A stretch of 64,000 bases of DNA from an uncultured Eubacteriales bacterium (GCA_964500895.1 CAZCQP010000003.1:35044-99043), one strand, 5' to 3'; numbered from the stretch's first letter, positions 1 to 63,897 are shown. Program-made: numbers and translations. The notes: generated by a model not told the origin, from the sequence alone.

Positions 1-393
1 CTCCCAGTGGATTGGTTCTGTATTGTTTCAATTGCAGGATGTACTTTGGAATAGTTTGAATCACGTAGGTGTACCTATTTGGTTAAACAATATGTTGGTT
101 TTGGGCATTTATAGAGTGGTTGCCTGGGTGGTGTCTGTGATGTTGCCCCCAATGGCTATTTTCTTTCCATTGTTTACCCTCTTGGAAGATTTGGGCTATT
201 TGCCCCGGGTGGCTTTTAACCTGGACTATCAATTTAAAAAGTGCTGTGCTTGCGGAAAGCAAGCGCTAACTATGTGCATGGGATTCGGATGCAACGCTGC
301 GGGGGTGGTAGGGTGCCGCATTATTGACTCCCCAAGGGAACGTTTAATTGCCATTCTTACCAATAACTTTGTGCCCTGCAACGGCCGGTTTCC
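1..393 (+). pseudogene. feoB: Ferrous iron transporter FeoB, upstream portion of a split gene (enters from window edge)
   Basis: Translation has FeoB membrane-domain motifs (FPLFTLLEDLGYLPRVAF, ILTNNFVPCNGRFP). After codon CCG at 392 it runs into 17 unrelated codons and a stop at 448. The expected continuation FPTLLALITIFF is at 12514. Confidence 0.85.
389..393. other. attL core of element 1 (TTTCC, repeated at 12514..12518)
   Basis: This is the only sequence shared at the two feoB break points. It sits in the same codon phase (TTT CCN = Phe-Pro) in both halves. Confidence 0.7.
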
Positions 394-423
394 GCCACCA
401 CACAAAGAGCAACACTATGCCGT

Positions 424-624
424 CTATTTAACTCCCTCCTGTGATTGAAGGATGGATAGCATTTTATCAATAACGGCTATCTTTTGTTCCGTGGTGAGCT
501 GCGACTGGTTTAACCTTCGCTCTATGACGTCTGCGTGAAACTGGCTTATGGGCTGGGCAAGGGCGTGTACATTGTTGTTATTGGTGGTATGTACGATAAT
601 GTTTTGAACATGGTTTTTTCTCAT
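424..624 (-). CDS. Small element-end protein (66 aa), candidate recombination directionality factor or regulator
   Basis: The ORF starts at MRKNHVQNIIVHTTNNNN..ADVIERRLNQSQLTTEQK. It resembles the small ORF at 42283..42450 in pattern (I.VH..N...V.....I......V..RL....T.E.K) and in position at the left end of the other element. Confidence 0.45.
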   Translation of the reverse strand: MRKNHVQNIIVHTTNNNNVHALAQPISQFHADVIERRLNQSQLTTEQKIAVIDKMLSILQSQEGVK

Positions 625-767
625 GCACACACTCCATTTCAAAAGCAATGTAGTGACAATGTATGCATGCACCGATTCGTCCAATAACAAAAAGAAAACG
701 AGAAAAAGCAGGGTTAATAAACAATGTTTTAACCAATAAAAATTAAAATTATTGTAGTCAAAGCAAG

Positions 768-782
768 TAATTGCAACAATTA
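768..782. promoter_or_regulatory. Perfect 6+3+6 palindrome TAATTG-CAA-CAATTA, with a related AATTG-CA-CAATT at 803..814; possible operator
   Basis: Read directly in the AT-rich spacer between the small ORF and the LacI-family regulator gene. Confidence 0.25.
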
Positions 783-911
783 AAAATTAAAACCTTTAGG
801 AAAATTGCACAATTATGCATTAAAGATTTATACAAAATATCTATTGCATGATTTGAAAAAAATGGTATGATTATGTTACACCGTGCTCGGACACGGTAGT
901 GAGGTGAGTGC

Positions 912-1940
912 TTGAAAGTTACTATAAAACGTATTGCAGAACTGGCAGGTGTATCAAGAGGCACCGCAGACAGGGTGTTAAATGGCAGAGGGGGCGCCAG
1001 CAAAGAAACAACCGAAAAAGTGCTGCAAATTGCCCAAAGCTTAGACTATAAGCCCAATGTAGCGGCCAAAGCGCTGGCGATGAAGCGGTACAGCAAAAAA
1101 AAGATTGGCGTGATACTCAATGCCCAGAGTAATCCGTTTTATGATGATGTGATTGAGGGCGTACATGAGCAGGCTAAACTTATTGCCGACTTAGGTTTTG
1201 AAGTGGTGGTAAAAACTGCAAAAGGTTATGATGTGCAACAACAAAGTGGGCTTATTGGCCAATTTATGGAAGATCAAATTTGCGGGCTGGCCATTTCCCC
1301 CATTAATGATATAGAGATAGCCAATAAAATTAATGAACTGGCCAACAGTGGCATTCCTGTTGTCACCGTTAACACAGACATTGAAAAGTCTAAGCGTTTG
1401 GCGTATGTGGGCAGCAATTACGAAAAGGGCGGCCGCATTGCAGCCGGTTTGTTTGGCATGACCTGTGGGCAAACAGAAAAAATTGGCATCGTCACAGGCT
1501 CTTTAAAGGTGCTGGGGCACAATTTGCGCATAAAAGGTTTTAAATCATGCATTAACCAAGACTTTCCCCGCATATCCATTGCGGATATATATGAATGTAA
1601 CGATAACGATGCGTTGGCATACCAGGTAACCAAGGAAATGCTTTTAAAAGACCAAGACATGACGGGTGTGTTTTTCACAGCCGCAGGCACAAAAGGCGGG
1701 CTTGAAGCCGTAAGAACAGTTTGCCCCCATAAAAAATTAAAAGTGGTTACTTTCGATTTTGTTCAGACAATTAAAGAAAACTTGCTGAACGATACCATCA
1801 TGGCCACCATTTGTCAGGAACCGTATCAGCAAGGGTTTTTAAGTATTAAGGTACTTTACGAATATATCATGTCGGGCATTTTGCCTGAAAGTGAATATAT
1901 TATTACAGACACATTTGTGAAAACAAAGTATAACCTGTAA
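912..1940 (+). CDS. LacI-family transcriptional regulator (TTG start)
   Basis: N-terminal [26 protein letters not shown] followed by a periplasmic-binding-protein-like sugar-binding fold. Confidence 0.85.
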
Positions 1941-1986
1941 TCAAGTAATGAAGGCTTGCTTCAACAGCAAACTAAAGGGGGATTAT

Positions 1987-3300
1987 ATGCATACTTTTTT
2001 TGAAAACATACCCGCCATCAAGTATGAGGGTAAGGACAGCACAAACCCGTTAGCATTTAAGCACTATAACCCGGAACAAATCATTATGGGCAAACCCATG
2101 AAAGAACATTTAAAGTTTGCCATGAGCTATTGGCACACCATGTGCGGCGCTGGTGGGGACCCTTTCGGCTCTCCCACGGTAGACAGAAGCTATGGGCAAG
2201 AAAACCCCATGGATATGGCCAAAGCAAAGGCAGACGCTGCCTTTGAATTTATGACCAAAATGGGCATTGAATATTTTTGTTTCCACGATGTAGACATTGC
2301 GCCGGAAGGCAACAGTTTAGAAGAATTTAAAGCCAATCTGGAAGAAATGACGGATTATATTAAGCAGCTGATGGATAAAACCGGAATCAAATTGCTGTGG
2401 GGAACGGCAAACCTGTTTTCCCACCCACGGTATATGCATGGCGCGGGAACTTCCCCTTATGCGGATGTTTTGGCCTGCGGGGCGTTTCAAATTAAAAATG
2501 CCATAGATGCCACCATTAAGCTGGGTGGTGCAGGGTATGTTTTCTGGGGCGGCCGTGAAGGTTATGAAACCCTGTTAAACACAGACATGGGGCTGGAGCT
2601 GGACAACATGGCCCGTTTAATGAAAATGGCAGTGCAGTATGGCCGTGCACAAGGGTTTAAAGGGGATTTCTACATAGAACCAAAACCAAAGGAACCCACC
2701 AAACATCAGTATGATTTTGACACGGCCACTGTTTTGGCATTCTTGCAAAAATACGGTTTAAAAGACGATTTTAAAGTGAACATAGAAGCCAACCACGCAA
2801 CCCTTGCCGGCCACACTTTCCAGCATGAGCTGGTGCTGGCCCGTGTGAATGGCATATTCGGCTCTATTGATGCCAACCAAGGCGACTACCTGCTGGGTTG
2901 GGACACAGACCAATTCCCTACCAACGTGCATGAAACCACCTTGTGTATGCTGGAAGTTTTAAAAGCAGGGGGCTTTACCAACGGCGGCCTGAACTTTGAT
3001 GCCAAGTTAAGACGGGGTTCTTTTCAGCCGGTGGACTTCTTCCACGCATACATCGGCGGGATGGATGCCTTTGCGTTGGGGCTTATCAAAGCAGCCAAGG
3101 TAATGGAAGACGGCCGTTTGAATCAATTCGTGGAAGAACGGTACAAAAGCTACCAATCCGGCATTGGCGCCAAAATTGTGGCAGGTGAAACAACTTTAGA
3201 AGAACTGGCAGCTTATGCGGCCAACATCCCAAATCCCACAGTGCAAAGTGGCGGGCAGGAGTATTTAGAAGGCGTTCTAAACCAAGTGATTTATTCTTAA
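1987..3300 (+). CDS. xylA: Xylose isomerase
   Basis: Motifs [30 protein letters not shown] and [24 protein letters not shown] lies before the ATG at 1987. Confidence 0.95.
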
Positions 3301-3318
3301 ATTAAGGGTGAATGTAAA

Positions 3319-4833
3319 GTGAAATACGTCATCGGCATAGACATTGGCACATCCGGCACAAAAACTTTGCTTGTAAGCCAAGCGGGGAAAATTGTTGCAT
3401 CGGCAAGTGCAGAATACCCTTTGTACCAGCCCCAAAACGGCTGGGCAGAGCAAGACCCTAACCACTGGTGGCAGGCCACGTGCACAACCATTCAATCTGT
3501 TTTAGTCCAGTCTGGCATAATGCCTGAAGAAATTGAAGGTATTGGTTTGTCCGGGCAAATGCACGGGCTGGTTATGCTGGATGTTAATGGTGAAGTGATT
3601 CGCCATGCCATTCTTTGGTGTGACCAGCGCACCGCCCAAGAGTGCGCAGACATTAACGGTTTGGTTGGTGAACAACGCCACGTTGAAATTGCGGCTAATC
3701 CACCCCTTACGGGTTTTACATCCCCTAAAATATTGTGGGTGCGCAAGCACGAACCAGAGCACTATGCCAAATGCCATAAAATATTGCTGCCAAAAGATTA
3801 CATCCGCTATAAGCTGACCGGGGAATTTGCCACGGAAGTGTCGGATGCTTCGGGCATGGGGCTGCTGGATGTGAAGGGCCGTTGCTGGTCTGAAGAAATA
3901 TTGGAAAAGTTGGACATAAACATCAACCTGCTGGGTAAGATGCATGAGTCTGTGGAAATTACCGGCCGGGTGACCCAACAAGCTTCCCAACAAACCGGCC
4001 TTGCAGAAGGCACGTTGGTGGCAGGTGGGGCTGGCGATAATGCAGCCGCAGCTGTAGGCACCGGCATTGTAAAAGATGGAAGGGCCTTTACGACCATTGG
4101 CACTTCCGGGGTGGTATATGCCCACACCTCCACACCCGTCATCGAATCAAAGGGGCGGATACATACGTTTTGTTCAGCTGTGCCCGGGGAATGGCATGTG
4201 ATGGGCGTCACCCAAGGGGCAGGCCTTTCCCTTCGCTGGTTGCGGGACACGGTGTGTACGGAGGAAGCGGCGGAAGCCAACATGCAGGGCACCGACCCAT
4301 ACGATGTGATGGCTAAAGAAGCAGAAACGGCACCCATTGGTGCTGAAAGTCTGGTGTTTCTGCCCTACTTAATGGGCGAGCGCACCCCCCATTTAAACCC
4401 CAACGCAAGGGGCGTGTTTTTCGGCTTGTCCCCCGTACATCATAGAAGCCACATGATTCGCAGCGTTATGGAAGGGGTTAGCTATTCACTGATGGACTGC
4501 CTGGCCTTGCTCAAAGAAATGGACATTGTCTGCAACGACATGACCATTTGCGGTGGGGGAGGGCGTAGCGCCTTCTGGTGCCAAATGCTGGCAGATATTT
4601 TTGGCAGCCCGGTGAAAACACTGCAAAGCGCAGAAGGCCCGGCTTTAGGTGTGGCCATTCTGGCAGGGGTTGGCGCCGGTTGGTTTCAAACCGTGGAAGA
4701 AGGTTGCCAACAGTTTTTGGCTACGAAAAAAAGCTATGAACCCCAAAACGAAAACAAACCGGCTTACGATAAGTATTATGACATTTATAAAAACCTTTAC
4801 AAAGATTTGGCCACACGGTTTAACGATTTGTAA
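3319..4833 (+). CDS. xylB: Xylulokinase (FGGY family, GTG start)
   Basis: YVIGIDIGTSGTKTLL, GLSGQMHGLV, GGAGDNAAAAVGTG. Immediately downstream of xylA. Confidence 0.9.
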   Translation: MKYVIGIDIGTSGTKTLLVSQAGKIVASASAEYPLYQPQNGWAEQDPNHWWQATCTTIQSVLVQSGIMPEEIEGIGLSGQMHGLVMLDVNGEVIRHAILWCDQRTAQECADINGLVGEQRHVEIAANPPLTGFTSPKILWVRKHEPEHYAKCHKILLPKDYIRYKLTGEFATEVSDASGMGLLDVKGRCWSEEILEKLDININLLGKMHESVEITGRVTQQASQQTGLAEGTLVAGGAGDNAAAAVGTGIVKDGRAFTTIGTSGVVYAHTSTPVIESKGRIHTFCSAVPGEWHVMGVTQGAGLSLRWLRDTVCTEEAAEANMQGTDPYDVMAKEAETAPIGAESLVFLPYLMGERTPHLNPNARGVFFGLSPVHHRSHMIRSVMEGVSYSLMDCLALLKEMDIVCNDMTICGGGGRSAFWCQMLADIFGSPVKTLQSAEGPALGVAILAGVGAGWFQTVEEGCQQFLATKKSYEPQNENKPAYDKYYDIYKNLYKDLATRFNDL

Positions 4834-4882
4834 TTAAAGACGCAACCACGATCAAACTTCATATTTTAAGGAGGTTTATGCC

Positions 4883-5875
4883 ATGGGAAAAAGACTTGTT
4901 ACATTATGCACATGCCAGTGGGCAGATTTGCCTTTGGAGGAGCTGTGCCAGTTGGCAGTACAAATGGGCTATGACGGCCTGGAACTGGCTTGCTGGGGCA
5001 ACGGTGTAGATTTGGACAAAGCCGCCGCAGACGACGGCTATGTAGCTGAAGTTTTAAACACCCTTAAAAAGTATAACCTGCAATGCAAGGCACTGGCCAC
5101 CCACATCATTGGCCAATGCGTGGGGGATGCCCCAGACGTGCGCTTGAACAACTTTGCCCCCCCTCAACTGGCCGATAAGCCGGAAGAAATTCGGCAATGG
5201 GGCATTGAGACTATGAAAAAAGCCGCCATTGTGGCTAAGAAAATGGGTGTTAAAGTCATTACAGGCTTTACCGGTTCCCCCATCTGGAAGTTTGTATACT
5301 CCTTCCCACAAACCACAGAGCAAATGGTGGAAGAAGGTTTTGACGAAATTGTACGGTTGTGGACGCCCATTTTGGAAGTGTTCAAAGAAAATGATGTGAA
5401 ATTTGCTTTGGAAGTGCACCCGGGGGAAATTGCTTTTGATTATTACTCCACCCAAAAACTACTGAAAAAGTTTGAGGGCGTTGAAGCATTTGGGCTGAAC
5501 TTTGACCCCAGCCATCTGCTGTGGCAAGGCATTAAGCCAGAGCTTTTCCTGCGGGATTTCATGCACAAAGTATACCATGTACATATGAAAGACGTGGCCG
5601 TAACGCTGGACGGCAGAAGCGGCATTTTAGGTTCCCACATTGATTTTGGCGACTTGCGCCGTGGCTGGAACTTCCGTTCTTTAGGCCATGGGGATGTAAA
5701 CTTTGAAGAAATTATCCGTACACTCAATGCTGCCGGTTACGACGGCCCGCTTTCCGTGGAATGGGAAGACAGCGGCATGGACCGCATTGAAGGGGCAACA
5801 GAAGCTGCTGCATTTGTGAAGAAAATTGACTTTAAAGCTTCCGATTTTAAGTTTGACGATGCCATTGCAAACTAA
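4883..5875 (+). CDS. Sugar phosphate isomerase/epimerase (xylose-isomerase-like TIM barrel)
   Basis: Family-typical pattern (GYDGLELA, ALEVHPGEIAF, HVHMKD, SVEWED). Confidence 0.75.
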   Translation: MGKRLVTLCTCQWADLPLEELCQLAVQMGYDGLELACWGNGVDLDKAAADDGYVAEVLNTLKKYNLQCKALATHIIGQCVGDAPDVRLNNFAPPQLADKPEEIRQWGIETMKKAAIVAKKMGVKVITGFTGSPIWKFVYSFPQTTEQMVEEGFDEIVRLWTPILEVFKENDVKFALEVHPGEIAFDYYSTQKLLKKFEGVEAFGLNFDPSHLLWQGIKPELFLRDFMHKVYHVHMKDVAVTLDGRSGILGSHIDFGDLRRGWNFRSLGHGDVNFEEIIRTLNAAGYDGPLSVEWEDSGMDRIEGATEAAAFVKKIDFKASDFKFDDAIAN

Positions 5876-5902
5876 TTTGAAACAATGGAAGGAGGATTGT
5901 GC

Positions 5903-7051
5903 ATGAAACGTGTGACATACGGCATGGTGGGCGGGCATCTTCATGCCTTTATCGGTGAGGTACACCGCAAAGCTTTAAATTATGACAACCGAGCCCGTTT
6001 GGTTGCCGGATGCTTTAGCTCCGATGCTGAAAAGAACAATGAAACCGGCCAGGCCTACAGCTTAGAGGACGGCCGGGTTTATGCAAGCTACGCCGATATG
6101 GCAGAAAAAGAAAGTGCACGTGAAGACGGCATTAACTTTGTTATCATCACCACGCCAAATCATTTGCATTATGCGGTGTCTAAGGCGTTTCTGGAAAAAG
6201 GCATTCATGTGGTGTGCGAAAAGCCTTTGTGCTTTGAAGTGGCGCAAGCCCAGGAACTGGTGGAGCTGGCAGAAAAGAAAAACCTGCTCTTTGCCGTTAC
6301 ATATTCATACACCGGCTACACCATGATTAAAGTTATGAAAGAAATGATTGCAAACGGGGCCATTGGCAATGTGGTGTCTGTAAATGGCGAATACATTCAG
6401 GAATGGCTCATTGACAACCTTTCCCCGGAACAACCAGGCACAGCAAAACTTTCTGTGTGGCGTACAGACCCTCAATATTCCGGCGTATCCAATTGCGTGG
6501 GGGATATTGGCACCCACATTGAAAACATGATTCACTATTTAACAGGTTTAAATATCAAGCGTTTGGCCGCTACCGTTAACCGTTTTGGGCACCCGCTGGA
6601 CTTAAACGCCAACATGCTCATCGAATACGACAACGGGGTGAACGGTGCATACTGGTGTTCCCAAATTGCAGCCGGTAAGTTGAACGGGTTTAAAGTGCGT
6701 ATTTATGGGGATTTAGGGGCACTGGAATGGGAACAACACTTCCCAGACTACGTTCAGTATACGCCAAAAGGCAAACCCACCCAAACCCTTTCCAGAGGCA
6801 CAGGTTATATCACGGAACAAGCGGGCGGATACAGCCGCATCCCCTCCGGCCACCCTGAAGGGCTGTATGTGGCGTTTGCTAACATGTACAAAAACATCAT
6901 CAGTGCGGTGTTAAAGCTGAAAGAAGGCCAGCAGCTTACCGAAGCAGATATGGATTTTGCAACGGTGAAGGACGGCTTAAATGGTGTGAAATTTGTGCAT
7001 GCCGTGATGGAAAGCGCAGAAAAAGGCGCTTGCTGGGTTGATGTAAACTGA
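5903..7051 (+). CDS. Gfo/Idh/MocA family oxidoreductase
   Basis: N-terminal Rossmann segment, ITTPNHLH and EKPL motifs. RBS AAGGAGG lies before the ATG at 5903. Confidence 0.8.
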   Translation: MKRVTYGMVGGHLHAFIGEVHRKALNYDNRARLVAGCFSSDAEKNNETGQAYSLEDGRVYASYADMAEKESAREDGINFVIITTPNHLHYAVSKAFLEKGIHVVCEKPLCFEVAQAQELVELAEKKNLLFAVTYSYTGYTMIKVMKEMIANGAIGNVVSVNGEYIQEWLIDNLSPEQPGTAKLSVWRTDPQYSGVSNCVGDIGTHIENMIHYLTGLNIKRLAATVNRFGHPLDLNANMLIEYDNGVNGAYWCSQIAAGKLNGFKVRIYGDLGALEWEQHFPDYVQYTPKGKPTQTLSRGTGYITEQAGGYSRIPSGHPEGLYVAFANMYKNIISAVLKLKEGQQLTEADMDFATVKDGLNGVKFVHAVMESAEKGACWVDVN

Positions 7052-7114
7052 GCATAGATGGTTTATGCAAGGTTTATATATGTACTGAAAATATAAAAAA
7101 ATGGAGGTCAAAGT

Positions 7115-8191
7115 ATGAAAAAAGCAATTGCATTAGGGCTTGCGCTGGTAATGTCTACCGCACTCCTGTTCACCGGATGCAGTTCTTCCACACCGGCTCC
7201 GTCTCCGGAAGCGCCTGCCGCTGAAGAACCGGCAGCCGAAACACTAGCTGTGCAAGAAGCACCCGCAGCAGACGGGGAAATTTCCATTCTCATTCCAGGT
7301 GCCACCCACGGTTGGCCGGTAGGCGTGTTGTACTACGCCAATGAGAAGCAAAAAGAGCTGGAAACATTAGGCCAAAAAGCGGTTGTATACACAGCAGACA
7401 CCGCACAAGCCCAGATTGAGAAACTGGAAGACTTGATGACCCGTTCCGACATTAAAGGCGTGATGATTTTACCTTTTGATAACAGCGTGGTCAACGCCGT
7501 TAAAGGCATGGAAGGCAAAGTACCTTTCGTTATGTTCGACCGTATTCTTGAAGGCGTCAATTCCAACGCCAACGTAATGGGCGACAACTTCGGCATTGGG
7601 TACGAAACCGCCAAGATTTTCCTTGAAAAAGGGCTGCAAAAAACCGACAAAATTTTAGAAATGCCTGGCGACAACTCCAGCGTTCCTGAAATGCGTTCCA
7701 ATGGCTTTAGAGAAGGCTTGAAAACACAAGGCGGCTGGACGGACGAAGAACTGAACGCTGCTATCTTCAAAACCGACTTCACTGGTTGGAGCCGTGACAA
7801 TTCCAAAACCTTGTTCGAGGGCTTCGTAGGCTCTAAAACACAAGAAGAACTTGATCAATACAAGTTTATCTTCACCCATGACGATGAAATCGCCATTGGT
7901 ATCTTCAACGCTATTCAAGCAGGCAACCTGGGCAAAAACATTGACAAAGTTGAAGTTTTAGCCGCTTCTGCCGGTAACCAAGAAATGTACAACATTCTGA
8001 ATGATGGCACCTATGCCGACCAGTTCTATCTGTTCTCTCTCACCTACCCGCCATACATGGTGCAAGACGCCATTGACGTGTTGGTGCAAGTGTTGAACGG
8101 CGAAACGGTTGACAAAGAAATTGTTATCCCTGTTAAAAAAGTGGATAGCACCAATGCCAAAGACTACTTAAATCCTGATTCACCTTATTAA
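7115..8191 (+). CDS. Sugar ABC transporter substrate-binding lipoprotein
   Basis: Lipoprotein signal (LLFTGC), Ala/Pro/Glu-rich linker, then a periplasmic sugar-binding fold. Confidence 0.8.
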   Translation: MKKAIALGLALVMSTALLFTGCSSSTPAPSPEAPAAEEPAAETLAVQEAPAADGEISILIPGATHGWPVGVLYYANEKQKELETLGQKAVVYTADTAQAQIEKLEDLMTRSDIKGVMILPFDNSVVNAVKGMEGKVPFVMFDRILEGVNSNANVMGDNFGIGYETAKIFLEKGLQKTDKILEMPGDNSSVPEMRSNGFREGLKTQGGWTDEELNAAIFKTDFTGWSRDNSKTLFEGFVGSKTQEELDQYKFIFTHDDEIAIGIFNAIQAGNLGKNIDKVEVLAASAGNQEMYNILNDGTYADQFYLFSLTYPPYMVQDAIDVLVQVLNGETVDKEIVIPVKKVDSTNAKDYLNPDSPY

Positions 8192-8275
8192 TCCGTTTCC
8201 TCTAGCAAAGGCTGTATGATGCAGTGCTTTATACAGCCTTTGCTTATAAAGTTTGCGAATAAGCGGGGGTCAAAC

Positions 8276-9790
8276 ATGCAGTTATTGGAAATGACAAACA
8301 TAAGCAAGTCGTTTTTTGGTGTTAAGGTATTAAACAATGTGACCCTCACAGTAGGCGAGGGCGAAACCCATGCCCTGCTGGGCGAAAACGGCGCAGGGAA
8401 ATCCACGCTGATGAACATTCTTGGCGGCGTTCACGAACGAGACAGCGGGGAAATTGTGCTTAACGGCAAAAAGATTGATAAAATCACCACCAAAACCGCT
8501 TCAGAGCTGGGCATTGCATTTGTACACCAGGAATTGAACCTTTTTAATGATCTAACCGTTTTTGAAAACATTTTTTTAAGAGAAGAAATTGTTAACCGCT
8601 TTGGAAAAGTGATGAACAAGGAAATGATTCAGTCTGTGGCGGTGCTTTTTGACGACCTGGGCGTGGAGATAGACCCTACAGTCATGGTGAGTGAATTGGA
8701 CACTGCCCAAAAGCAGCTACTGGAAATTGCCAAAGCTTTGCGCAAAGACGCCAACATTTTCATTATGGACGAGCCAACAACTGCCTTGGGTAATGCTGAA
8801 ATTGAAAAATTATTTGCTATCATTAACCGGCTGAAAGCAAAAGGGAAATCTTTTATCTTTATTTCCCATAAAATGCCAGAAATATTTACAATTGCCGATA
8901 AGTACACGGTGCTTAGAAACGGCAACTATGTGGGCTCTGGCCTTATTTCTGAAACCACGCCGGAAGCCGTTACCAAATTAATGGTGGGTGAATCCTACGA
9001 TAACAGTGACGTGTACAAGGAAAGGAAATTAACGGAACCTGTGTTGGAGCTTGAAAACTTTACCGGCACCGGTTTTACAGATATAAATTTAAAAATTTAC
9101 AAGGGTGAAATATTTAGTTTAACCGGGTTGCATGGGGCAGGGTGCAGTGAACTGTTGCAGTGTATGTTTGGCATAACACAGCCCACATCGGGCACCATGA
9201 AGGTGGCCGGAAAGGTTTACAATTGCAGCGGCATTCACCATGCCATGAAAAATAAAATTGCCATGCTGCCCTCTAACCGCAAAGAAAACTCTATTATTCC
9301 AGACATGAACTTGCTGGAAAATGCATACATATCCGAACATACGTTAAGCAGCGCAAAACAACATATATTCAAAAAAAATGAAGTCAGTAAATATAACCAT
9401 CTAAGCAAAATGCTCAACATTAAAGCCAATAACCACAATGACCTGATTGTTAGCCTAAGCGGTGGAAACCAGCAAAAAGTTGTTTTGGCCAAATGGCTGA
9501 ACACCCAGGCGGACATCTTTTTGTTCGACAACCCCACCCAAGGTATTGACGTTGGAGCCAAAAATGAAATTTATAAGCTGATTGTAGAGCTATCCAATCA
9601 AGGAAAGACCGTCATTGTGAATACGTTAGAAATATCTGAAATACAAAAAATATCAGACAGATGCGCAGTGTTTTACCATTCACATTTGCAAGTGGTGTTG
9701 GACAGGCAAAATATTAACGAGAAAACGGTGATGCTTTATGCCACAAATGCAGTCAGTATTTCGGAGGGTGACTATGAACAAGCAGAATAA
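8276..9790 (+). CDS. Sugar ABC transporter ATP-binding protein (two fused ABC domains)
   Basis: Walker A GENGAGKST, signature LSGGNQQK, duplicated ABC modules. RBS GGGGG lies before the ATG at 8276. Confidence 0.9.
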   Translation: MQLLEMTNISKSFFGVKVLNNVTLTVGEGETHALLGENGAGKSTLMNILGGVHERDSGEIVLNGKKIDKITTKTASELGIAFVHQELNLFNDLTVFENIFLREEIVNRFGKVMNKEMIQSVAVLFDDLGVEIDPTVMVSELDTAQKQLLEIAKALRKDANIFIMDEPTTALGNAEIEKLFAIINRLKAKGKSFIFISHKMPEIFTIADKYTVLRNGNYVGSGLISETTPEAVTKLMVGESYDNSDVYKERKLTEPVLELENFTGTGFTDINLKIYKGEIFSLTGLHGAGCSELLQCMFGITQPTSGTMKVAGKVYNCSGIHHAMKNKIAMLPSNRKENSIIPDMNLLENAYISEHTLSSAKQHIFKKNEVSKYNHLSKMLNIKANNHNDLIVSLSGGNQQKVVLAKWLNTQADIFLFDNPTQGIDVGAKNEIYKLIVELSNQGKTVIVNTLEISEIQKISDRCAVFYHSHLQVVLDRQNINEKTVMLYATNAVSISEGDYEQAE

Positions 9791-10766
9791 CGCTCAAAAA
9801 GAATCCATTTTAAAATGGCTGTGGTTTAATTTTAACTATGTTATCATTTTCTTTGTTATTTTTATTGCCTACTTAATTGTGAACGGCAAAGCCACCAACT
9901 GGGCAGCCATTACAAACATTATGCGCCACAGCTCCATCATTGGCATTGTGGCGTTGGCCATGGGGCTTATCATTCTTATCGGCAACATTGATTTGTCTGT
10001 AGGGTCAACGGTGGCATTAGTGGGCGGGTTTTCGGTGCTGGTGTTTAATGCTACGGGCAGCCTGGCACTGACCATTGTTTTCGGCATAGCGGCAGGTGGT
10101 GTTGCAGGGCTTATAAACGGTCTTTTAATTGGTAAGATTCGTATGCCTGCCTTCATCGCCACTCTGGCTACCATGATGATGTACCGTTCAGTTTCCCAGT
10201 ATTATTTAAGCAATACGGGTGTGGCCATGTATAAAATAGATGCCAATGCCGCCCAATATGATGCATTTTTTGCCTTGGGTAACGGCAATCAGTTTACCAT
10301 TCCCATTTTAACCATCATTTTTATTGTCATTGCCTGCATATTAATTTATGTAACAACCTCCACCAAATTCGGCAAAACGTTGTACGCCATTGGTAGCAAC
10401 GAAAAAGCCGCCAAATTAAGCGGTATTAACACCGAACGGGTTCGGGTGGTTGTATACGTAATAGCAGGGGCATTGGTTGGTTTGGCAGCGGTTATGTTTG
10501 CGGGGCAAAACGGAACCATCACCCCGTCTTCTGCGGGCAAAAACTATGAGCTTTATGCCATTGCGGCGGTAGTGATTGGTGGCCTTGAAATGTCTGGCGG
10601 CCGGGGCAAAATAATGGGCGTTATATTCGGTATGCTTACGTTTACAGTTATTGATAAAATCATTCTGTCCTTGGGGTATAACCCCCTCATTAATGATACC
10701 ATCAAAGGGGCTATTCTGCTTATTGCCATTATGCTGCAATTGCTGCAAAGCAGAAGGAAAGCCTAG
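9774..10766 (+). CDS. Sugar ABC transporter permease (ribose/xylose-type)
   Basis: Multi-pass hydrophobic protein with the GNIDLSVGS motif. The start overlaps the end of the ATPase gene. Confidence 0.85.
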   Translation: MNKQNNAQKESILKWLWFNFNYVIIFFVIFIAYLIVNGKATNWAAITNIMRHSSIIGIVALAMGLIILIGNIDLSVGSTVALVGGFSVLVFNATGSLALTIVFGIAAGGVAGLINGLLIGKIRMPAFIATLATMMMYRSVSQYYLSNTGVAMYKIDANAAQYDAFFALGNGNQFTIPILTIIFIVIACILIYVTTSTKFGKTLYAIGSNEKAAKLSGINTERVRVVVYVIAGALVGLAAVMFAGQNGTITPSSAGKNYELYAIAAVVIGGLEMSGGRGKIMGVIFGMLTFTVIDKIILSLGYNPLINDTIKGAILLIAIMLQLLQSRRKA

Positions 10767-10796
10767 TACCTACAAAAGCTTAATCCATACAAAAGC

Positions 10797-10827
10797 GTCC
10801 GCCGGCTCTGTTTTCGGCGGACATTTT
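10797..10827 (+). terminator. Rho-independent terminator after the ABC operon
   Basis: GTCCGCCG / CGGCGGAC stem followed by a T-rich tail. Confidence 0.6.
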
Positions 10828-10853
10828 ACTTTCTTAGAGGATGGTGATAGCTT

Positions 10854-12479
10854 TTGAAATTTTTTATATACAGCCGTAAGTCTGTCTATACCGGAAAGGG
10901 CGAAAGCATTGAAAACCAAATTGAAATGTGCAAACAGTACATTTTTACAAAGTTTCCAGGTGTAACGGATTTGGCGATGACCGTGTACGAAGATGAAGGT
11001 TTTTCAGCAAAGGATACGGCCAGGCCCCAGTTTCAAAAAATGTTAAAGGACATGAAGCAGGAAAAGCCAGACTTTGTGGTTTGCTACCGGCTGGACCGTA
11101 TCAGCCGTAATGTCAGCGACTTTTCTGCACTGATAGAAGAATTAAATGACCGCAGCATTTCCTTTGTATGCATTAAAGAAGAGTTTGATACTTCAAAACC
11201 AATGGGTAAGGCCATGATGTACATTGCTTCGGTTTTCGCCCAGTTAGAACGGGAAACCATTGCCGAACGGGTTCGTGATAATATGCTTATGCTTGCCCGC
11301 ACGGGGCGGTGGCTTGGGGGTACGACACCCACAGGGTATACGTCAGAAAAGGTGCAAGAGGTGATTGTAGACGGAAAAATGAAAACTGCTTGCAAGCTTA
11401 AAGAGAACCCAGAAGAGCTTCGGGCCGTTGACATGATGTTTGAAAAGTTTTTGGAACTGCGCAGCATATCCGGCGTAAGCAAACATCTGATGAAGCAGGG
11501 CATAAAGTCACGCAGAGGCAAACCTTACACCTTGCTCGGCATTAAAGAGATTTTGCAAAACCCGGTTTATTGCATGGCAGATAAAGATGCGTTGGACTAC
11601 TTTACCAAACAAAAGGCAGACGTTTGCTTCGAGGCAAAGGATTGTACGGATAAATATGGGCTGTTGTCGTACAACAAGCGTGATTACAAGAAAAAACACG
11701 CCCCAAGGCAACCTATAGATAAATGGATTATTGCCATGGGCAAACATAAGGGGCGAATACCAGGGCAAAAGTGGGTAACCGTGCAAAAGATACTGGCAGA
11801 CAACATGCCCACAGGCAAAAAATCTTCCAATATGCATAACGATTACGCTTTGCTTTCCGGGCTTATTTTCTGTGAAAAGTGTGGTAGCCGGATGTTTGCA
11901 AAGCCTCGCAGGAGTAAAGGCGCAAACCCTGATTTATTTGACTATATATGCAACAGTAAAATGCGTGGTGGCATGGCACTTTGCGATTGCCAAAACATTA
12001 GCGGGCAGCAAGCGGACGATATGGCCTGTGCATATCTGATGCAGTACACCAACGGGCATTCAAGCATTCATAAGCAACTGGAAAAGCTAAAAAGTGATTT
12101 GCAGAGCCGGGAACGTGAAAATCCCATGGCTGTACTCGAGGCAAGCATTAAAAAATGCAGCGAAGAAATGAACAATCTGGTAAATTCACTGACCCAAACA
12201 GGCCTTGGCACAGCATTCATACAGCGTGTTAATGACCGGATGACCACCCTGGACCAAGAGCTTACAGCGCTAAACAAAACCCGCAACCAGCTAGAGAAAG
12301 ATGCTGGTGGCATCTTTCAAAAGGAAATGCAGGTAGAACGGTTAGCCACTATGCTTATTAGCAAAAAAAGTTACTTTAATGCATTGACCATTCACGAAAA
12401 GCGTGTTTTAATTAAATTGATAGTAAAGAAAATGGTTTGGAATGGAAGGGACCTACATATTTTTATAAACGGTGCTTAG
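10854..12479 (+). CDS. Large serine recombinase (element 1, TTG start)
   Basis: Resolvase catalytic domain (IYSRKS, YRLDRISRN), recombinase domain, Cys-rich zinc-ribbon region (CEKCGS...C..C.C) and a C-terminal coiled coil. Ends 35 nt before the attR core. Confidence 0.9.
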   Translation: MKFFIYSRKSVYTGKGESIENQIEMCKQYIFTKFPGVTDLAMTVYEDEGFSAKDTARPQFQKMLKDMKQEKPDFVVCYRLDRISRNVSDFSALIEELNDRSISFVCIKEEFDTSKPMGKAMMYIASVFAQLERETIAERVRDNMLMLARTGRWLGGTTPTGYTSEKVQEVIVDGKMKTACKLKENPEELRAVDMMFEKFLELRSISGVSKHLMKQGIKSRRGKPYTLLGIKEILQNPVYCMADKDALDYFTKQKADVCFEAKDCTDKYGLLSYNKRDYKKKHAPRQPIDKWIIAMGKHKGRIPGQKWVTVQKILADNMPTGKKSSNMHNDYALLSGLIFCEKCGSRMFAKPRRSKGANPDLFDYICNSKMRGGMALCDCQNISGQQADDMACAYLMQYTNGHSSIHKQLEKLKSDLQSRERENPMAVLEASIKKCSEEMNNLVNSLTQTGLGTAFIQRVNDRMTTLDQELTALNKTRNQLEKDAGGIFQKEMQVERLATMLISKKSYFNALTIHEKRVLIKLIVKKMVWNGRDLHIFINGA

Positions 12480-12513
12480 AAAGATGCAAACTTCCCTTTT
12501 GGTTGGTGGCGCA

Positions 12514-13251
12514 TTTCCTACACTGCTTGCGCTCATTACCATTTTCTTTGCCATGGGGGCAACGGGGGTGTGGCAAAGCGTACTAAGCGCCATCATACTT
12601 ACAGGCATTATTGCACTGGGCGTAGCGGCCACTTTTTTAGCATCCAGATTTTTGTCTGGTACGGTGCTAAAAGGTACACCATCGTCCTTTACTCTGGAAC
12701 TTCCTCCTTACCGCAAGCCCCAAGTGGCCAAAGTGTTGGTGCGGTCGTTGTTTGATAGAACCCTCTTTGTGTTGGGCAGGGCGGTGAGCGTGGCGGCACC
12801 TGCGGGGTTAATCATTTGGCTTATGAGCAACATCGTTGTTGGAGATGTAAGCCTTTTGGCCCACTGTGCTGGCGTTTTAGACCCCTTTGCCAGGTTGTTG
12901 GGCATGGATGGTATTATTATGATGGCATTCATCCTTGGTTTTCCGGCCAATGAAATTGTGTTGCCCATCATTTTAATGGCATACTTGTCCCAAGGTACGT
13001 TAATGGAACCCACCAGCATGGAAAATTTGCGTACATTGCTGCTGGACAATGGCTGGACCGGAGTGACGGCAATTTGTGTGATGTTATTTTCGCTTATGCA
13101 TTGGCCCTGTTCCACCACTTGCCTAACCATTCGTAAAGAAACGGAAAGCATGAAATGGACGGCGGTAGCCTTCGTTTTGCCTACAGTTCTGGGCATGGCA
13201 GCCTGTTTTCTGGTGGCTACAGTGGCTCGGCTTCTAGGGCTGGGTCTATGA
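12514..13251 (+). pseudogene. feoB: FeoB, downstream portion of the split gene
   Basis: FPTLLALITIFF..LELPPYRKP..GFPANEIVLPI..HWPCSTT is the C-terminal FeoB membrane region. It is in phase with 1..393 across TTTCC. Confidence 0.85.
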
Positions 13252-41933: not shown

Positions 41934-42048
41934 TTGAAAACTTATATTGAAGAAAGAGCCGTGGAAGTGGCAAATTTTATTATTAAAAACGATGCAACCG
42001 TCCGTGAGACAGCCAAAAAATTTGGCATTAGCAAATCTACTGTACATA
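41934..42048 (+). pseudogene. spoIIID: spoIIID, 5' part of a split gene (38 codons with the HTH; TTG start)
   Basis: LKTYIEERAVEVANFIIKNDATVRETAKKFGISKSTVH after RBS AAGGAGGGG. It then reads MDVI-stop (42060..42062) instead of the conserved KDVTERL. Confidence 0.85.
42044..42048. other. attL core of element 2 (ACATA, repeated at 63729..63733)
   Basis: This is the only sequence shared at the two spoIIID break points, and it is in the same codon phase. Confidence 0.7.
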
Positions 42049-46235: not shown

Positions 46236-47022
46236 TTAGAACCTGTTTGCTATCTATCAAACCACAATGGCTTGATGTATAATTATATGAAAAAATTATA
46301 CATAGGAGCGAAAAATGAGAGCTGCATATCCAAGCGACGTAACCCGTGCGCAGTTTGAAGGCATACGTCATTATTTTGATACTAACAAGAAAAAATCAAC
46401 ATTTACGACATATTCTGTGCAGTTCTTTATGTGTTGCGGGAAGGTTGTAGGTGGCGTTCTCTACCACATGACTATCCCAAATGGAAGAATTGTTATAAAC
46501 ATTATAGGATATGAGATGCAAAAGGGCCTGATGGTAAAAGCCATCTTGGACAAAGCCCTTGAAAACCGCTCCCATTTGGTCTGTTACATTTGCGGTAGTC
46601 CGTCTATGGCGTGAGGAAGCTCCAGGGTATCAACCCCGATATGAATTTTAACCCCGGACACTTTTTCCCACCGTCATAGCCTTTTTCTTCGGCGGTGAAA
46701 GCGCTCTTTACACTCTTGGAATCAGTAATACTCATGGTGGTTTTGGGTTTCTGCCTTTGACAATGCGTTATGACATAACTAATTATGAAACCTTCTCCCC
46801 AAACCTTGCCAACATTATTAAAGTGCTTTGTGATGGTGATTTTACGGGCAAACCATTTGCTGATGCTATTATGAACTAATCAAAGCTGAAGTGGAAATAG
46901 CAAAATGCAAAGAACTTCACACATTTTTAGTTATCCCTATGCTTTGAGTAGTCGAGAGAACTTTCATTGCTTTTAAAGATGGTAAACAGGTTCTTGCAAC
47001 GTTATTGAATACAGGGTTCTTA
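46236..47022 (+). mobile_element. Decayed IS5-like insertion sequence (frameshifted, internally deleted transposase; central ~225 bp inverted)
   Basis: + strand: MRAAYPSDVTRAQFEGIR, LPHDYPKWKNCYKHYRIW. - strand at 46545..46772: TTMSITDSKSVKSAFTAEEKGYDGGKK, VDTLELPHA. + strand again: VLCDGDFTGKPFADAI, NAKNFTHF, SLLLK..RY-stop. Right terminus TTATTGAATACAGGGTTCTTA. Confidence 0.7.
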
Positions 47023-62075: not shown

Positions 62076-62155
62076 TAGCCATCGGATATAGCTCCCTTTT
62101 GATGATTGTCACAATCATTTTATGGAGCACCGATGGTTTTCTACTCCCATCCTTT
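62076..62155 (-). repeat. Right arm of the inverted repeat (overlaps the recombinase leader)
   Basis: See the left arm. The arms bracket a 655 bp core (61421..62075) with no convincing ORF. Confidence 0.85.
62102..62118. promoter_or_regulatory. Perfect 8+1+8 palindrome ATGATTGT-C-ACAATCAT (operator-like), overlapping a weak TTGATG-N16-TATGGA promoter-like pattern facing the recombinase gene
   Basis: Read directly, ~80 nt upstream of the recombinase ATG. The copy in the left arm (61377..61394) is degenerate. Confidence 0.35.
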
Positions 62156-62198
62156 TTGCAATTTATGCTACTCTATCAAAGAAAACAAGGGTGATGCT

Positions 62199-63734
62199 AT
62201 GCGAACCGTTGCGTATTGCCGTGTTTCTACAAGTAAAGATGAACAATTAGACAGTTTAGCAGCACAGCAAAGGTTTTTTACGGAGTATTCAGAAAAGAAC
62301 AATTATCATTTAGTCCAAATATATGCCGATGAGGGTAAGAGTGGAACGAAGCTTAAAAACCGCACACAGCTTCTGAAGCTTTTGGCAGATGCTAAAAAGC
62401 AAATGTTTGATATTGTGCTTATCAAAGACGTTTCGCGGCTTGCCAGAAACACTGTTGACTTTTTGACGAGCATACGTGCGCTCAAGGCATTAGGGGTTAA
62501 GGTTGTATTTGTGAATTACGACCAAACCGATTCAGACAGTTCGGAATTTATGCTTACATTGCTTTCAGCAATTGCGCAGGAGGAATCAGCAAACACATCA
62601 AAGCGTGTGAAGTTTGGAAAGAAGATGAACGCCGAAAAAGGGCGTGTTCCTAACATTGTATACGGATACAACAAGCAAGTTGGGGACTACTTTAGCCTAG
62701 AAATTAACGAGCCCGAAGCACAGGTTGTTAGGGACATCTTTGATATGTATGTTAATGAAAATTTTGGAGCAAATAAAATAGCCATGACATTAAACGCTAA
62801 AGGGTATAAAACAAAACGTGGCTGTAAGTGGACGCAAAATGCCATTGCAAGGATTTTGGCCAACCAAATTTACATAGGCCGGGTTATCAATGGCAAGGAA
62901 GAAGTGGAGGATTTTCTAACAGGCAAGCGAAAAGAGAAAAATCAGCATGAATGGATTATAACCGAAAATGAAGCGCTGCGCATTATACCAGATGAGCTGT
63001 TTGATAAGGCTCAAAAAACATTAGCGCAAAGAACCCAAACTTTTAATATAACAGGGGAACGTAATTCAGACAAGCATGTTTTCAGCAAGCTTATCAAATG
63101 TTCTTGTTGTCATTCGTCATTCAGGCAATCCGTTAGAACATATAAAAATACATACACCAAGTGGGTATGCACAGGGCGCAATGCCAAAGGAGCTGGGTTT
63201 TGTATCAATAAAACTGTTATTGATGAAGCTCAACTTTTAGAAGCAATTAAAGCATACTTTGTTGAGCTGTTAATGCAGAAACCCAGCTTTATTAAAAGTA
63301 AAATTAATCAACTCAATAGACTTTATCAATCGAAAGATGAAAACGTGCAATCGGAAAAGACCCTCATGCGTGAAAGAAACCGACTAAATAAACTGAAACA
63401 AAAACAAATTGAGATGTATGAAGCCGACATCATCAGCCTTGATGCATTAAAAGAACGCACACAAGAACTGGATGCACACCTTGTAAGCGTGGATGAGCAG
63501 CTGCATATGATTCAAATGAATGTGAGCAAAAGTGATATGTTTAAAAATGCATTAATGGAAACCTTTTGCGACATAGAGAATGGGTTGAAAGCCGAGCATT
63601 TCACCAATGCCATGCTAAACAGGGTGATAGAGAAAATAACCGTAGACGAAAACGGCAAAATTGATGTGTACCTACGTTTATTAAGTGACATCGGTATGGA
63701 AAATAGCGTTCTATTAAGCAACGACCAAACATAA
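62199..63734 (+). CDS. Large serine recombinase (element 2, SpoIVCA/CisA-like)
   Basis: VAYCRVSTSKDEQ catalytic Ser, IKDVSRLARN, recombinase domain, Cys cluster (CSCCHS...C...C) and a long C-terminal coiled coil. The start is taken at MRTVAY after AAGGG. The stop TAA overlaps the attR core. Confidence 0.9.
   Translation: MRTVAYCRVSTSKDEQLDSLAAQQRFFTEYSEKNNYHLVQIYADEGKSGTKLKNRTQLLKLLADAKKQMFDIVLIKDVSRLARNTVDFLTSIRALKALGVKVVFVNYDQTDSDSSEFMLTLLSAIAQEESANTSKRVKFGKKMNAEKGRVPNIVYGYNKQVGDYFSLEINEPEAQVVRDIFDMYVNENFGANKIAMTLNAKGYKTKRGCKWTQNAIARILANQIYIGRVINGKEEVEDFLTGKRKEKNQHEWIITENEALRIIPDELFDKAQKTLAQRTQTFNITGERNSDKHVFSKLIKCSCCHSSFRQSVRTYKNTYTKWVCTGRNAKGAGFCINKTVIDEAQLLEAIKAYFVELLMQKPSFIKSKINQLNRLYQSKDENVQSEKTLMRERNRLNKLKQKQIEMYEADIISLDALKERTQELDAHLVSVDEQLHMIQMNVSKSDMFKNALMETFCDIENGLKAEHFTNAMLNRVIEKITVDENGKIDVYLRLLSDIGMENSVLLSNDQT
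63729..63733. other. attR core of element 2 (ACATA)
   Basis: Matches 42044..42048. Confidence 0.7.
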
Positions 63735-63897
63735 AGATGTTACAGAACGATTGATTAAAATTAACCCCAAATTGGCAGGCGAAGCACGCAGAGTGCTGGA
63801 AGTGAACAAATCCCAGCGCCATATTCGTGGAGGGCTGGCTACGAAAGAAAAATACATGACGCTGCCGGGAAGCATTGGGTTGAAAAAACTGAAATAG
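63733..63897 (+). pseudogene. spoIIID: spoIIID, 3' part of the split gene (54 codons)
   Basis: KDVTERLIKINPKLAGEARRVLEVNKSQRHIRGGLATKEKY... is the conserved SpoIIID C-terminal region. It is in phase with 41934..42047 across ACATA, giving a 92-codon ORF. Confidence 0.85.

Follow-up and report, generated by a model that had tools for sequence, protein, structure and literature searches.

A probable large serine recombinase island with xylose genes in feoB of an uncultured Eubacteriales bacterium and its feoB-associated relatives in Clostridia

Interrupted feoB and gene content of the insert

A stretch of 64,000 nucleotides from an uncultured Eubacteriales bacterium (GCA_964500895.1, CAZCQP010000003.1:35044-99043), hereafter the window, contains at its beginning a feoB gene that is interrupted by a recombinase-bearing insert. 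The gene is cut at ...CNGRF|P between positions 393 and 394, and its frame is picked up again at 12514. The upstream part is read in frame 2 as ...NNFVPCNGRFP up to base 394 and is followed by 18 foreign codons and a stop codon. The downstream part opens with FPTLLALITIFF at 12514 and has its own stop codon at 13251. When positions 2-393 were joined to 12519-13251, an open frame of 374 aa was obtained. The joined protein is 72% identical to residues 257-629 of the 629-aa FeoB P0010, with zero gaps across or near the junction, and therefore the two halves are collinear parts of one gene. This bears out a first-pass annotation of the sequence, which had described a split feoB with these ends and had named the collinearity of the halves as decisive. 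Thousands of FeoB proteins match the joined protein at E ≤ 0.001, and the best 120 listed cover 94-100% of it.

The insert comprises positions 394-12513 (12,120 bp) with 10 open reading frames (ORFs; Table 1). Between a small ORF and the recombinase gene lie a LacI-type regulator, xylA, xylB, a TIM-barrel protein, a Gfo/Idh/MocA oxidoreductase and a three-gene importer, a cargo list that had been read from the sequence before and was confirmed with Pfam and NCBIfam. Both xylA and xylB pass the NCBIfam equivalog cutoffs. The ATPase and the permease of the importer match the AraG, XylG, RbsA and GguB models of NCBIfam, each below the cutoff.

The element proteins gave no match to phage, conjugation or replication families in Pfam and NCBIfam, nor did the six of them that were compared with PHROGs. 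In the latter collection, only the recombinase (integrase) and the LacI regulator (generic DNA-binding family) matched. Relaxase, type IV secretion and coupling-protein genes were not detected among the 10 ORFs in the Pfam, NCBIfam and PHROGs scans. The GC content is 0.455 for the element as well as for a 33-kb flank. The tetranucleotide correlation between element and flank is 0.97, and chunks of the flank correlate with one another at 0.92-0.96. The lack of phage, conjugation and replication genes and the chromosome-like base composition, both described in the first-pass annotation, are thus upheld. Judging from its gene content, the element appears to be a non-self-transmissible genomic island.

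Table 1. Features of the interrupted feoB locus and its insert (window positions)
Feature	Position	Strand	Characteristics
feoB, upstream part	1..393	+	runs off window start; ends ...NNFVPCNGRF(P); 78% identity to P0010 257-387
TT, predicted crossover dinucleotide, attL	389..390		bases 1-2 of the Phe codon; sole sequence common to attL and attR across family members
P' arm, left end of element	391..416		TCCGCCACCACACAAAGAGCAAC; matches family P' consensus; inverted partner of P arm
66-aa partner protein P0241	424..624	-	ATG at 624 preceded by GGAG; family HMM E=3e-31
LacI-family sugar-responsive regulator	912..1940	+	PF00356 and PF13407; RbsR/CcpA-like models below cutoffs
xylA, xylose isomerase	1948..3300	+	TIGR02630, 709 bits (cutoff 533); no Pfam match
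xylB, xylulokinase	3319..4833	+	TIGR01312, 588 bits (cutoff 380); FGGY_N and FGGY_C
Xylose-isomerase-like TIM-barrel protein (AP_endonuc_2)	4883..5875	+	PF01261, E=6.6e-42
Gfo/Idh/MocA oxidoreductase	5885..7051	+	PF01408, PF22725, PF02894; NCBIfam matches sub-threshold only
Monosaccharide ABC importer, three genes	7115..10766	+	Peripla_BP_4 and BPD_transp_2 type
Importer binding protein	7115-8191	+	PF13407; no NCBIfam match
Importer double ABC ATPase	8216-9790	+	PF00005, two copies
Importer permease	9738-10766	+	PF02653 (BPD_transp_2)
Intrinsic-terminator-like hairpin	10797..10822	+	9-bp stem, 7 GC pairs, then T-run; parts sugar operon from recombinase gene
Large serine recombinase, 541 aa	10854..12479	+	TTG start; PF00239, PF07508, PF13408; catalytic motif YSRKS
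P arm, right end of element	12490..12513		ACTTCCCTTTTGGTTGGTGGCGCA; 0 mismatches to TTTGGNTGGTGGCGYATT; later attR consensus agrees
feoB, downstream part	12514..13251	+	starts FPTLLALITIFF; 69% identity to P0010 383-628; predicted TT crossover of attR at 12514-12515

Recombinase, attachment sites and crossover

The large serine recombinase (LSR) has a Resolvase domain (E=4.3e-36, profile positions 2-145) that contains the nucleophilic-serine motif, and both the C-terminal Recombinase and the Zn_ribbon_recom domains are present. Its YxRxS motif is intact, as in 79 of 79 family members checked. Homologues of the LSR number in the thousands. Over their full length, the 119 best matches among database proteins share 69-78% identity with it, almost all of them being 541 aa long. 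DUF4368 was not found in the LSR in the Pfam scan. On the Ccr models, the LSR reached 125.9 bits for CcrB and 109 bits for CcrC, with cutoffs of 900 each. Among the LSR gene of the window (start at 10854) and 79 related genes, most, including that of the window, start with TTG instead of ATG, and this conserved weak start suggests a low translation of the recombinase.

Attachment sites were deduced from the junctions of the window and of the related loci described below. Alignment of 56 unique right junctions gave the consensus AAAgTTgCCcTTtGgnTGGTGGCGCA-TT-tCCnACncTnATtGC, and the left junctions read …TGCAAyGGnCGn-TT-TGCGCCACCAyACAAAGGGAAAC. The two arms of the element are inverted copies of one another. 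The P arm pattern listed in Table 1 was written from the family's aligned junctions; the P' arm of the window departs from the family consensus at a few positions. TT is the sole sequence that is common to both junctions in every element; attL of one relative (L011), for example, reads TTTGC and its attR TTCCC. Since only TT is common to attL and attR, the crossover was assigned to the TT of the Phe codon, which agrees with the asymmetric 2-bp core expected of LSRs.

According to the first-pass annotation, the two junctions share TTTCC in the same phase. This pentanucleotide is indeed present at 389-393 and again at 12514-12518 with equal codon phase (TTT CCN), but the crossover itself is most probably confined to TT. 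The longer duplication is apparent because the P' arm of the window starts with TCC and not with TGC, and TCC beyond TT can be considered a coincidental identity of the element arm with feoB codons. The join is in frame, no bases are gained or lost and there is no target duplication.

The attP reconstructed from the window, TTTGGTTGGTGGCGCA-TT-TCCGCCACCACACAAA, is inverted-symmetric about TT at 13 of 16 positions, in agreement with the inverted arms that had been noticed at the joined ends. The reconstructed attB has weak symmetry only. A quasi-palindromic attP with a TT crossover, …TGGTGGCGCA-TT-TGCGCCACCA…, is common to the family. The predicted attB is …AACGGCCGG-TT-TCCTACACTG… and the predicted attP …GGTGGCGCA-TT-TCCGCCACC…. 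No further att-like sites, which would be a sign of tandem accretion, were found inside the window's element.

With regard to the mechanism, the circular form of the element would have borne a quasi-palindromic attP of ~50 bp (…CCCTTTTGGTTGGTGGCGCA-TT-TCCGCCACCACACAAAG…). The element's own LSR would have recombined it with an attB in the part of feoB that codes for CNGRFP and is highly conserved, with strand exchange at the TT of the Phe codon. Such a reaction would be conservative: it would split feoB with bases neither gained nor lost, and its reversal would restore the gene exactly.

feoB-associated relatives in Clostridia

The insert is very probably an integrated LSR island of a large feoB-specific family. 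One genome per prokaryotic species was scanned, and 233 stretches were found to encode relatives of the LSR. The best 80 of these (47-83% identity) were kept and, together with seven metagenome loci, gave a set of 87 loci, referred to by L numbers. In 72 of the 87, with LSRs of 47-78% identity, the LSR gene is directly adjoined at its 3' end by a fragment of feoB, and the cut falls at exactly the residue that is interrupted in the window. In 62 loci the orientation is direct, i.e. the downstream feoB half follows the LSR and, like that of the window, begins with the Phe of FP. In the inverted orientation, found in 10 loci, the upstream half ...CNGRF abuts the end of the LSR gene. Of the remaining 15 loci, seven break off no more than about 200 bases from the LSR. 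In two, cargo follows the LSR before the same arm-plus-feoB junction is reached, one carries the upstream half of feoB at its left end and four are unresolved. The last one, L043, has a deviating junction (2536-2600): only about 500 bases follow the LSR, and the P arm is connected to the second FeoB Gate motif (…FP|ANEIVVPIII) and not to …FP|TLL. Either the element was integrated at an internal, paralogous pseudo-site, or the sequence between the two FP motifs was deleted.

It was also considered that the two feoB parts are unrelated paralogue fragments or were brought together by misassembly. This reading has a negligible probability and is refuted by the gapless in-frame join and by the recurrence of the same architecture in 72 independent loci from isolates and metagenome-assembled genomes (MAGs).

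The hosts include Oscillospiraceae, Lachnospiraceae (Eisenbergiella, Hungatella, Lacrimispora), Anaerotignum, Pseudoflavonifractor, Butyricicoccus, Anaerotruncus and Brassicibacter as well as MAGs labelled Peptococcaceae and Paenibacillaceae. The feoB-specific LSR family is widespread in Clostridia and, apparently, unnamed. In IMG/VR, only two of 35 matches are close relatives and the remainder have at most 54% identity; due to this rarity, the clade is not regarded as phage-borne.

The inverted members (L001, L014, L024, L029, L035, L041, L057, L066, L068 and L074) have an identical att geometry. In inverted elements such as L074, both junctions look alike in the feoB sense, and the interior alone is flipped relative to attP. 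By LSR similarity, the inverted members are scattered among the direct ones and, therefore, polarity was switched several times. Repeated flips fit a near-palindromic attP in which the direction is set by TT versus AA alone.

The inverted members also bear on the question of whether FeoB could still work in two pieces. Its halves would then be made separately and assemble, and the insertion would be phenotypically silent. An in-frame GTG at 12472 opens the downstream half, and some relatives encode the G-domain and the membrane domain separately (392-aa membrane-only matches). However, the membrane domain is cut within its conserved Gate motif, no ribosome-binding site of convincing quality precedes 12472, and inverted elements could not supply such expression. 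A split but working FeoB is thus very unlikely.

Spread between genera and exchange of cargo

The family moves between genera, as near-identical LSRs were found beside divergent FeoB fragments. LSRs of Eisenbergiella porci (L016), two Lachnospiraceae MAGs (L017, L019) and Fumia xinanensis (L026) are 98-99% identical and flank FeoB C-terminal fragments that are only 59-62% identical. An LSR identity of at least 90% together with a FeoB identity below 75% was observed in 21 of 56 locus pairs. Between these loci, a DNA identity of 94-96% spans the element and ends within a few bases of the crossover.

The genes between the constant ends vary from element to element. Lactate/malate dehydrogenase and malic enzyme are carried by L013 and L042 (4.7-4.9 kb), RloB and an AAA_21 ATPase by L027 (4.4 kb), and a GH42 β-galactosidase with a sugar ABC transporter and a two-component system by L028 (10.7 kb). 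L036 (10.7 kb) contains two radical-SAM proteins, one with a BATS domain, and HydF, which were read as HydE/G/F. A 2409-aa SLH surface protein is encoded by L072 (10.5 kb), a sulfatase and a CoA-transferase by L082 (7.5 kb), a LytTR two-component system with ABC exporters by L089-91 (about 9 kb) and KdpABC/DE by L092-94 (>10 kb). Hachiman defence genes occur in L001 and L088, the latter containing EcoRII/Vsr as well; these two elements were not delimited. The smallest element, L067 with 2.7 kb, consists of the LSR, the partner gene described below and one 143-aa ORF. The sugar module of the window is carried by none of the 87 related loci, and only L053 has distant LacI, kinase and permease analogues.

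The xylose module can be considered as horizontally deliverable cargo and not as core metabolism, and the window's element is a typical cargo-only member of the family. The first-pass annotation had proposed a minimal element consisting of recombinase plus cargo. This holds with respect to a site-specific LSR integrative element with sugar cargo and without transfer or phage genes; the element is, however, not a one-off. As a whole, the family of small LSR islands moves genes for defence, transport and metabolism between Clostridia of the gut and of the environment.

Some relatives contain transfer genes. In L016, a Tn916-type set of Rep_trans, FtsK and two DUF961 genes lies beside SMODS/SLATT. 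L002 has a coupling protein (T4CP), DUF3801 and DUF6017 beside HsdR (type I restriction), GmrSD and an APH-family phosphotransferase gene. Given these Tn916-like modules and coupling-protein genes in relatives whose LSR is of the same type, the window's element might be the remnant of an integrative conjugative or mobilisable element that lost its transfer genes, with the sugar genes as a later replacement. This origin is improbable: at least 10 independent complete elements of 2.7-10.7 kb consist of LSR, partner and cargo with no remnants of transfer genes, minimal members are a divergent partner/LSR pair alone, and the window's element has neither pseudogene fragments nor extra att-like sites.

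Two further observations concern individual relatives. In Hungatella (L088, 1-1369), a second recombinase of 649 aa with Resolvase and Recombinase domains is encoded about 9 kb upstream of the feoB-specific LSR; its location on the far side of the Hachiman and EcoRII/Vsr genes suggests a composite or nested island. A gene for a 52-57-aa Arc/CopG-like ribbon-helix-helix protein lies directly upstream of the LSR in L002 (9839-9997), L011 (9831-10004) and L089-L094 (9839-9997).

The 66-aa partner protein

The small ORF at the left end of the insert, listed in the first-pass annotation, is not cargo. A hidden Markov model (HMM) built from eight copies of the 66-aa protein matches 26 related loci and the window, including every complete element examined. 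The gene is almost always located on the strand opposite to the LSR, either at the far end of the element or, in minimal members, directly divergent from the LSR gene. Partner identity tracks LSR identity (Pearson r=0.82 for 232 pairs), and the intervening DNA is unrelated. The protein is encoded by a conserved backbone gene that co-diverges with the LSR.

A word-indexed search with the 66-aa protein returned two matches only, and exhaustive HMMER was required. Applied to 1.84 billion representatives, it gave ~100 clusters at 50% identity. The homologues are nearly all stand-alone proteins of about 50-116 aa, most of them with 60-70 aa. In the AlphaFold2 model from 80 sequences (pLDDT 80), the N-terminus is disordered and a hairpin of two helices is predicted with confidence; the model from two sequences was of low confidence (pLDDT 65). 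Nothing was matched by the protein in Pfam, PHROGs, PDB sequences or PDB folds. A PDB profile match to tautomerase (E=0.74) was rejected as an insignificant, local motif resemblance.

Known directionality factors of LSRs are small and structurally diverse (PMC12286644) and, therefore, the 66-aa protein is proposed as a candidate recombination directionality factor (RDF) or LSR regulator, based on linkage, size and co-divergence. That it is the cognate RDF is put forward tentatively, at somewhat less than even chances. Members of the partner family can also occur outside feoB elements, as a 69-aa homologue with 57% identity (L130, 10001-10210) was found away from feoB. It is located next to PhdYeFM/PIN and BlaR/BlaI-like genes, and no feoB or LSR of this clade is present among the called genes within 10 kb.

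Integration, present state and possible excision

The island consists of a backbone of two genes, with the LSR at one end and the 66-aa helical protein at the other, and of exchangeable cargo in between. In the present case, the cargo is the LacI-regulated xylA-xylB genes, the TIM-barrel/oxidoreductase pair and the monosaccharide ABC importer. Transfer may take place via helpers such as related conjugative members with Tn916-like or coupling-protein genes. feoB might be favoured as a target because the nucleotides that encode the motif hardly vary among Clostridia and because the gene is often redundant. An integration of this kind accounts for the broken feoB in this genome.

Several results weigh against this explanation or against a copy that is still mobile. 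The family-consensus attP TGGYGGCGYATTKSCRCMRCCAYRCAAAR, indicative of a circular form, was not matched in JGI metagenome contigs, and neither was the exact reconstructed attB of the window, which would represent an empty site. No FeoB closer than 72% identity was found in 5.8 billion proteins. The six window proteins that are contained in the protein collection are all singletons at 90% identity, and four more exact sequences are absent from it. The collections contain no conspecific genome and no close relative of this organism. The RDF role of the 66-aa protein is proposed from linkage and size, with no homology or fold match. The window has no ribbon-helix-helix gene upstream of the LSR but the terminator and 31 bp instead. 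Finally, the host-like composition and a nearest LSR relative of 78% identity argue for a long residence.

Looking up the 66-aa protein, toward the sequence upstream of the window, showed that it is not on record as a called gene. For the LacI regulator, the look-up gave a single 2.2-kb Logan contig from the public run SRR10912416 (L132), which encodes an identical protein and shows that there are raw reads of the organism.

The same composition and the same distance to the nearest relative, together with the unmatched attB and attP and the lack of transfer genes, would also be in line with a fixed insertion. In this case, an old LSR integration would be immobile by now, feoB would be permanently knocked out and the sugar module would simply be chromosomal. 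This is a serious alternative, albeit an unlikely one, as nothing in the window's copy is decayed: the LSR is of full length with its catalytic motif, the partner gene is intact with a Shine-Dalgarno sequence, and both att arms match the family consensus. Recombination of attP with attB needs the integrase alone, and the reverse reaction normally needs an RDF. For the integrated island, the chances that the window's copy is still able to excise are estimated to be about even.

Precise excision is mechanistically possible, and the conservative reaction would rebuild feoB exactly. This leads to the question of a regulatory switch, in which reversible excision on a physiological cue, e.g. iron limitation, would turn feoB on and off, as is known from sporulation intervening elements and from regulatory switches of phages. 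In 62 of 72 elements, LSR and feoB point in the same direction, so read-through from the feo promoter could reach element genes, and a second LSR element in the window splits spoIIID, a classic arrangement for programmed excision. On the other hand, no sign of regulation by iron was observed, the opposite orientation occurs in ten elements that are dispersed over the LSR tree, the family members act as horizontally moving cargo carriers, and the identity between the two LSRs of the window is as low as 24%. It is hence quite improbable that iron uptake is toggled conditionally. A long shot as well is the broader proposal that the LSR and its 66-aa partner form a dedicated, hitherto unnamed modular cargo platform of Clostridia, similar to the staphylococcal cassette chromosome (SCC), with the invariant CNGRFP codons of feoB as universal landing pad, the 66-aa helical hairpin as an RDF of a new type and a conditional excision that couples ferrous-iron uptake to the state of the element. 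If true, iron import would be traded against xylose catabolism in this organism.

Comparison with known systems

The integrated feoB island resembles SCC/SCCmec as a cargo-only, non-conjugative island that is moved by LSR to one site and has variable cargo between constant ends, and the window LSR is weakly akin to CcrB and CcrC. It is, however, not a Ccr orthologue, and one LSR with a 66-aa partner takes the place of the CcrAB pair. Moreover, the element disrupts feoB in the middle of the gene, whereas SCC uses the 3' end of rlmH (orfX), which is left intact, and the hosts of the feoB family are Clostridia.

Sporulation intervening elements, namely skin in sigK and SPβ in spsM with SprA/SprB, also have an LSR gene at the end and split a gene in frame, which is rebuilt by precise excision. 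A small directionality factor of ~60-75 aa accompanies their LSR; here, the 66-aa protein is a candidate only. A further sporulation gene-intervening element, in gerE of Bacillus cereus, is not a prophage (cited in PMC12286644). In contrast to these, feoB is not a mother-cell gene, the feoB family shows inter-genus transfer and free exchange of cargo, and there is no sign of programmed excision for the feoB element.

With Tn5397 (TndX) and Tn4451/Tn4453 (TnpX), the element has clostridial hosts, the location of the LSR at the element end and a 2-bp crossover in common, and some relatives of the window LSR are attached to Tn916-like conjugation modules as in Tn5397. It differs from Tn5397 and Tn4451 in having no transfer or mobilisation genes, in the strict single-codon specificity of the feoB family and in the lack of DUF4368 in the LSR. 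This domain marks a multi-targeting LSR clade (PMC10083194). LSR clusters that are each devoted to a single conserved host gene cluster were catalogued by Durrant et al. 2022 (PMC10083194). The terms feoB, FeoB_C and Gate are unmentioned in the searched text and supplements of that work, which describes neither a conserved 66-aa partner nor a cargo-only architecture. Phage regulatory switches ('active lysogeny', such as the comK prophage of Listeria) share the reversible disruption of a host gene by a serine integrase, but the feoB element has no phage genes, and there is no evidence for its conditional excision. In the searchable literature, no account of this family was found, nor anything relevant on feoB in combination with attB, a serine recombinase or integrative elements.

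For integrase toolkits, the family is a useful source of numerous natural triplets of LSR, attP and attB together with a candidate cognate directionality factor. It is also a clean system for studying how cargo-only islands spread without transfer genes of their own. Leads at the family level are the single-codon target, the conserved partner, the dual polarity and the coexistence of cargo-only and conjugative members on one integration module.

A second recombinase element in spoIIID

A second LSR is encoded at 62106-63734, and it is this protein that shows the low identity to the first one given above. Its gene ends 1 bp before the C-terminal part of spoIIID (DVTERLIKINPKLAGEARRVLEVNKSQRHIRGG…, 63736-63897), and the N-terminal part (…AKKFGISKSTVHMDV) is located near 42,030. 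The element measures ~21.7 kb within window positions ~41,900-63,900 and contains a GGDEF gene, glycosyltransferases and a block of low GC content (0.29-0.36) at 47-61 kb. It is the window's true analogue of the sporulation intervening elements. Inside it, a 99-aa ORF is present at 46315-46614 (MRAAYPSDVTRAQFEGIRHYF…), which we take to resemble an N-terminal fragment of an IS5-type transposase.

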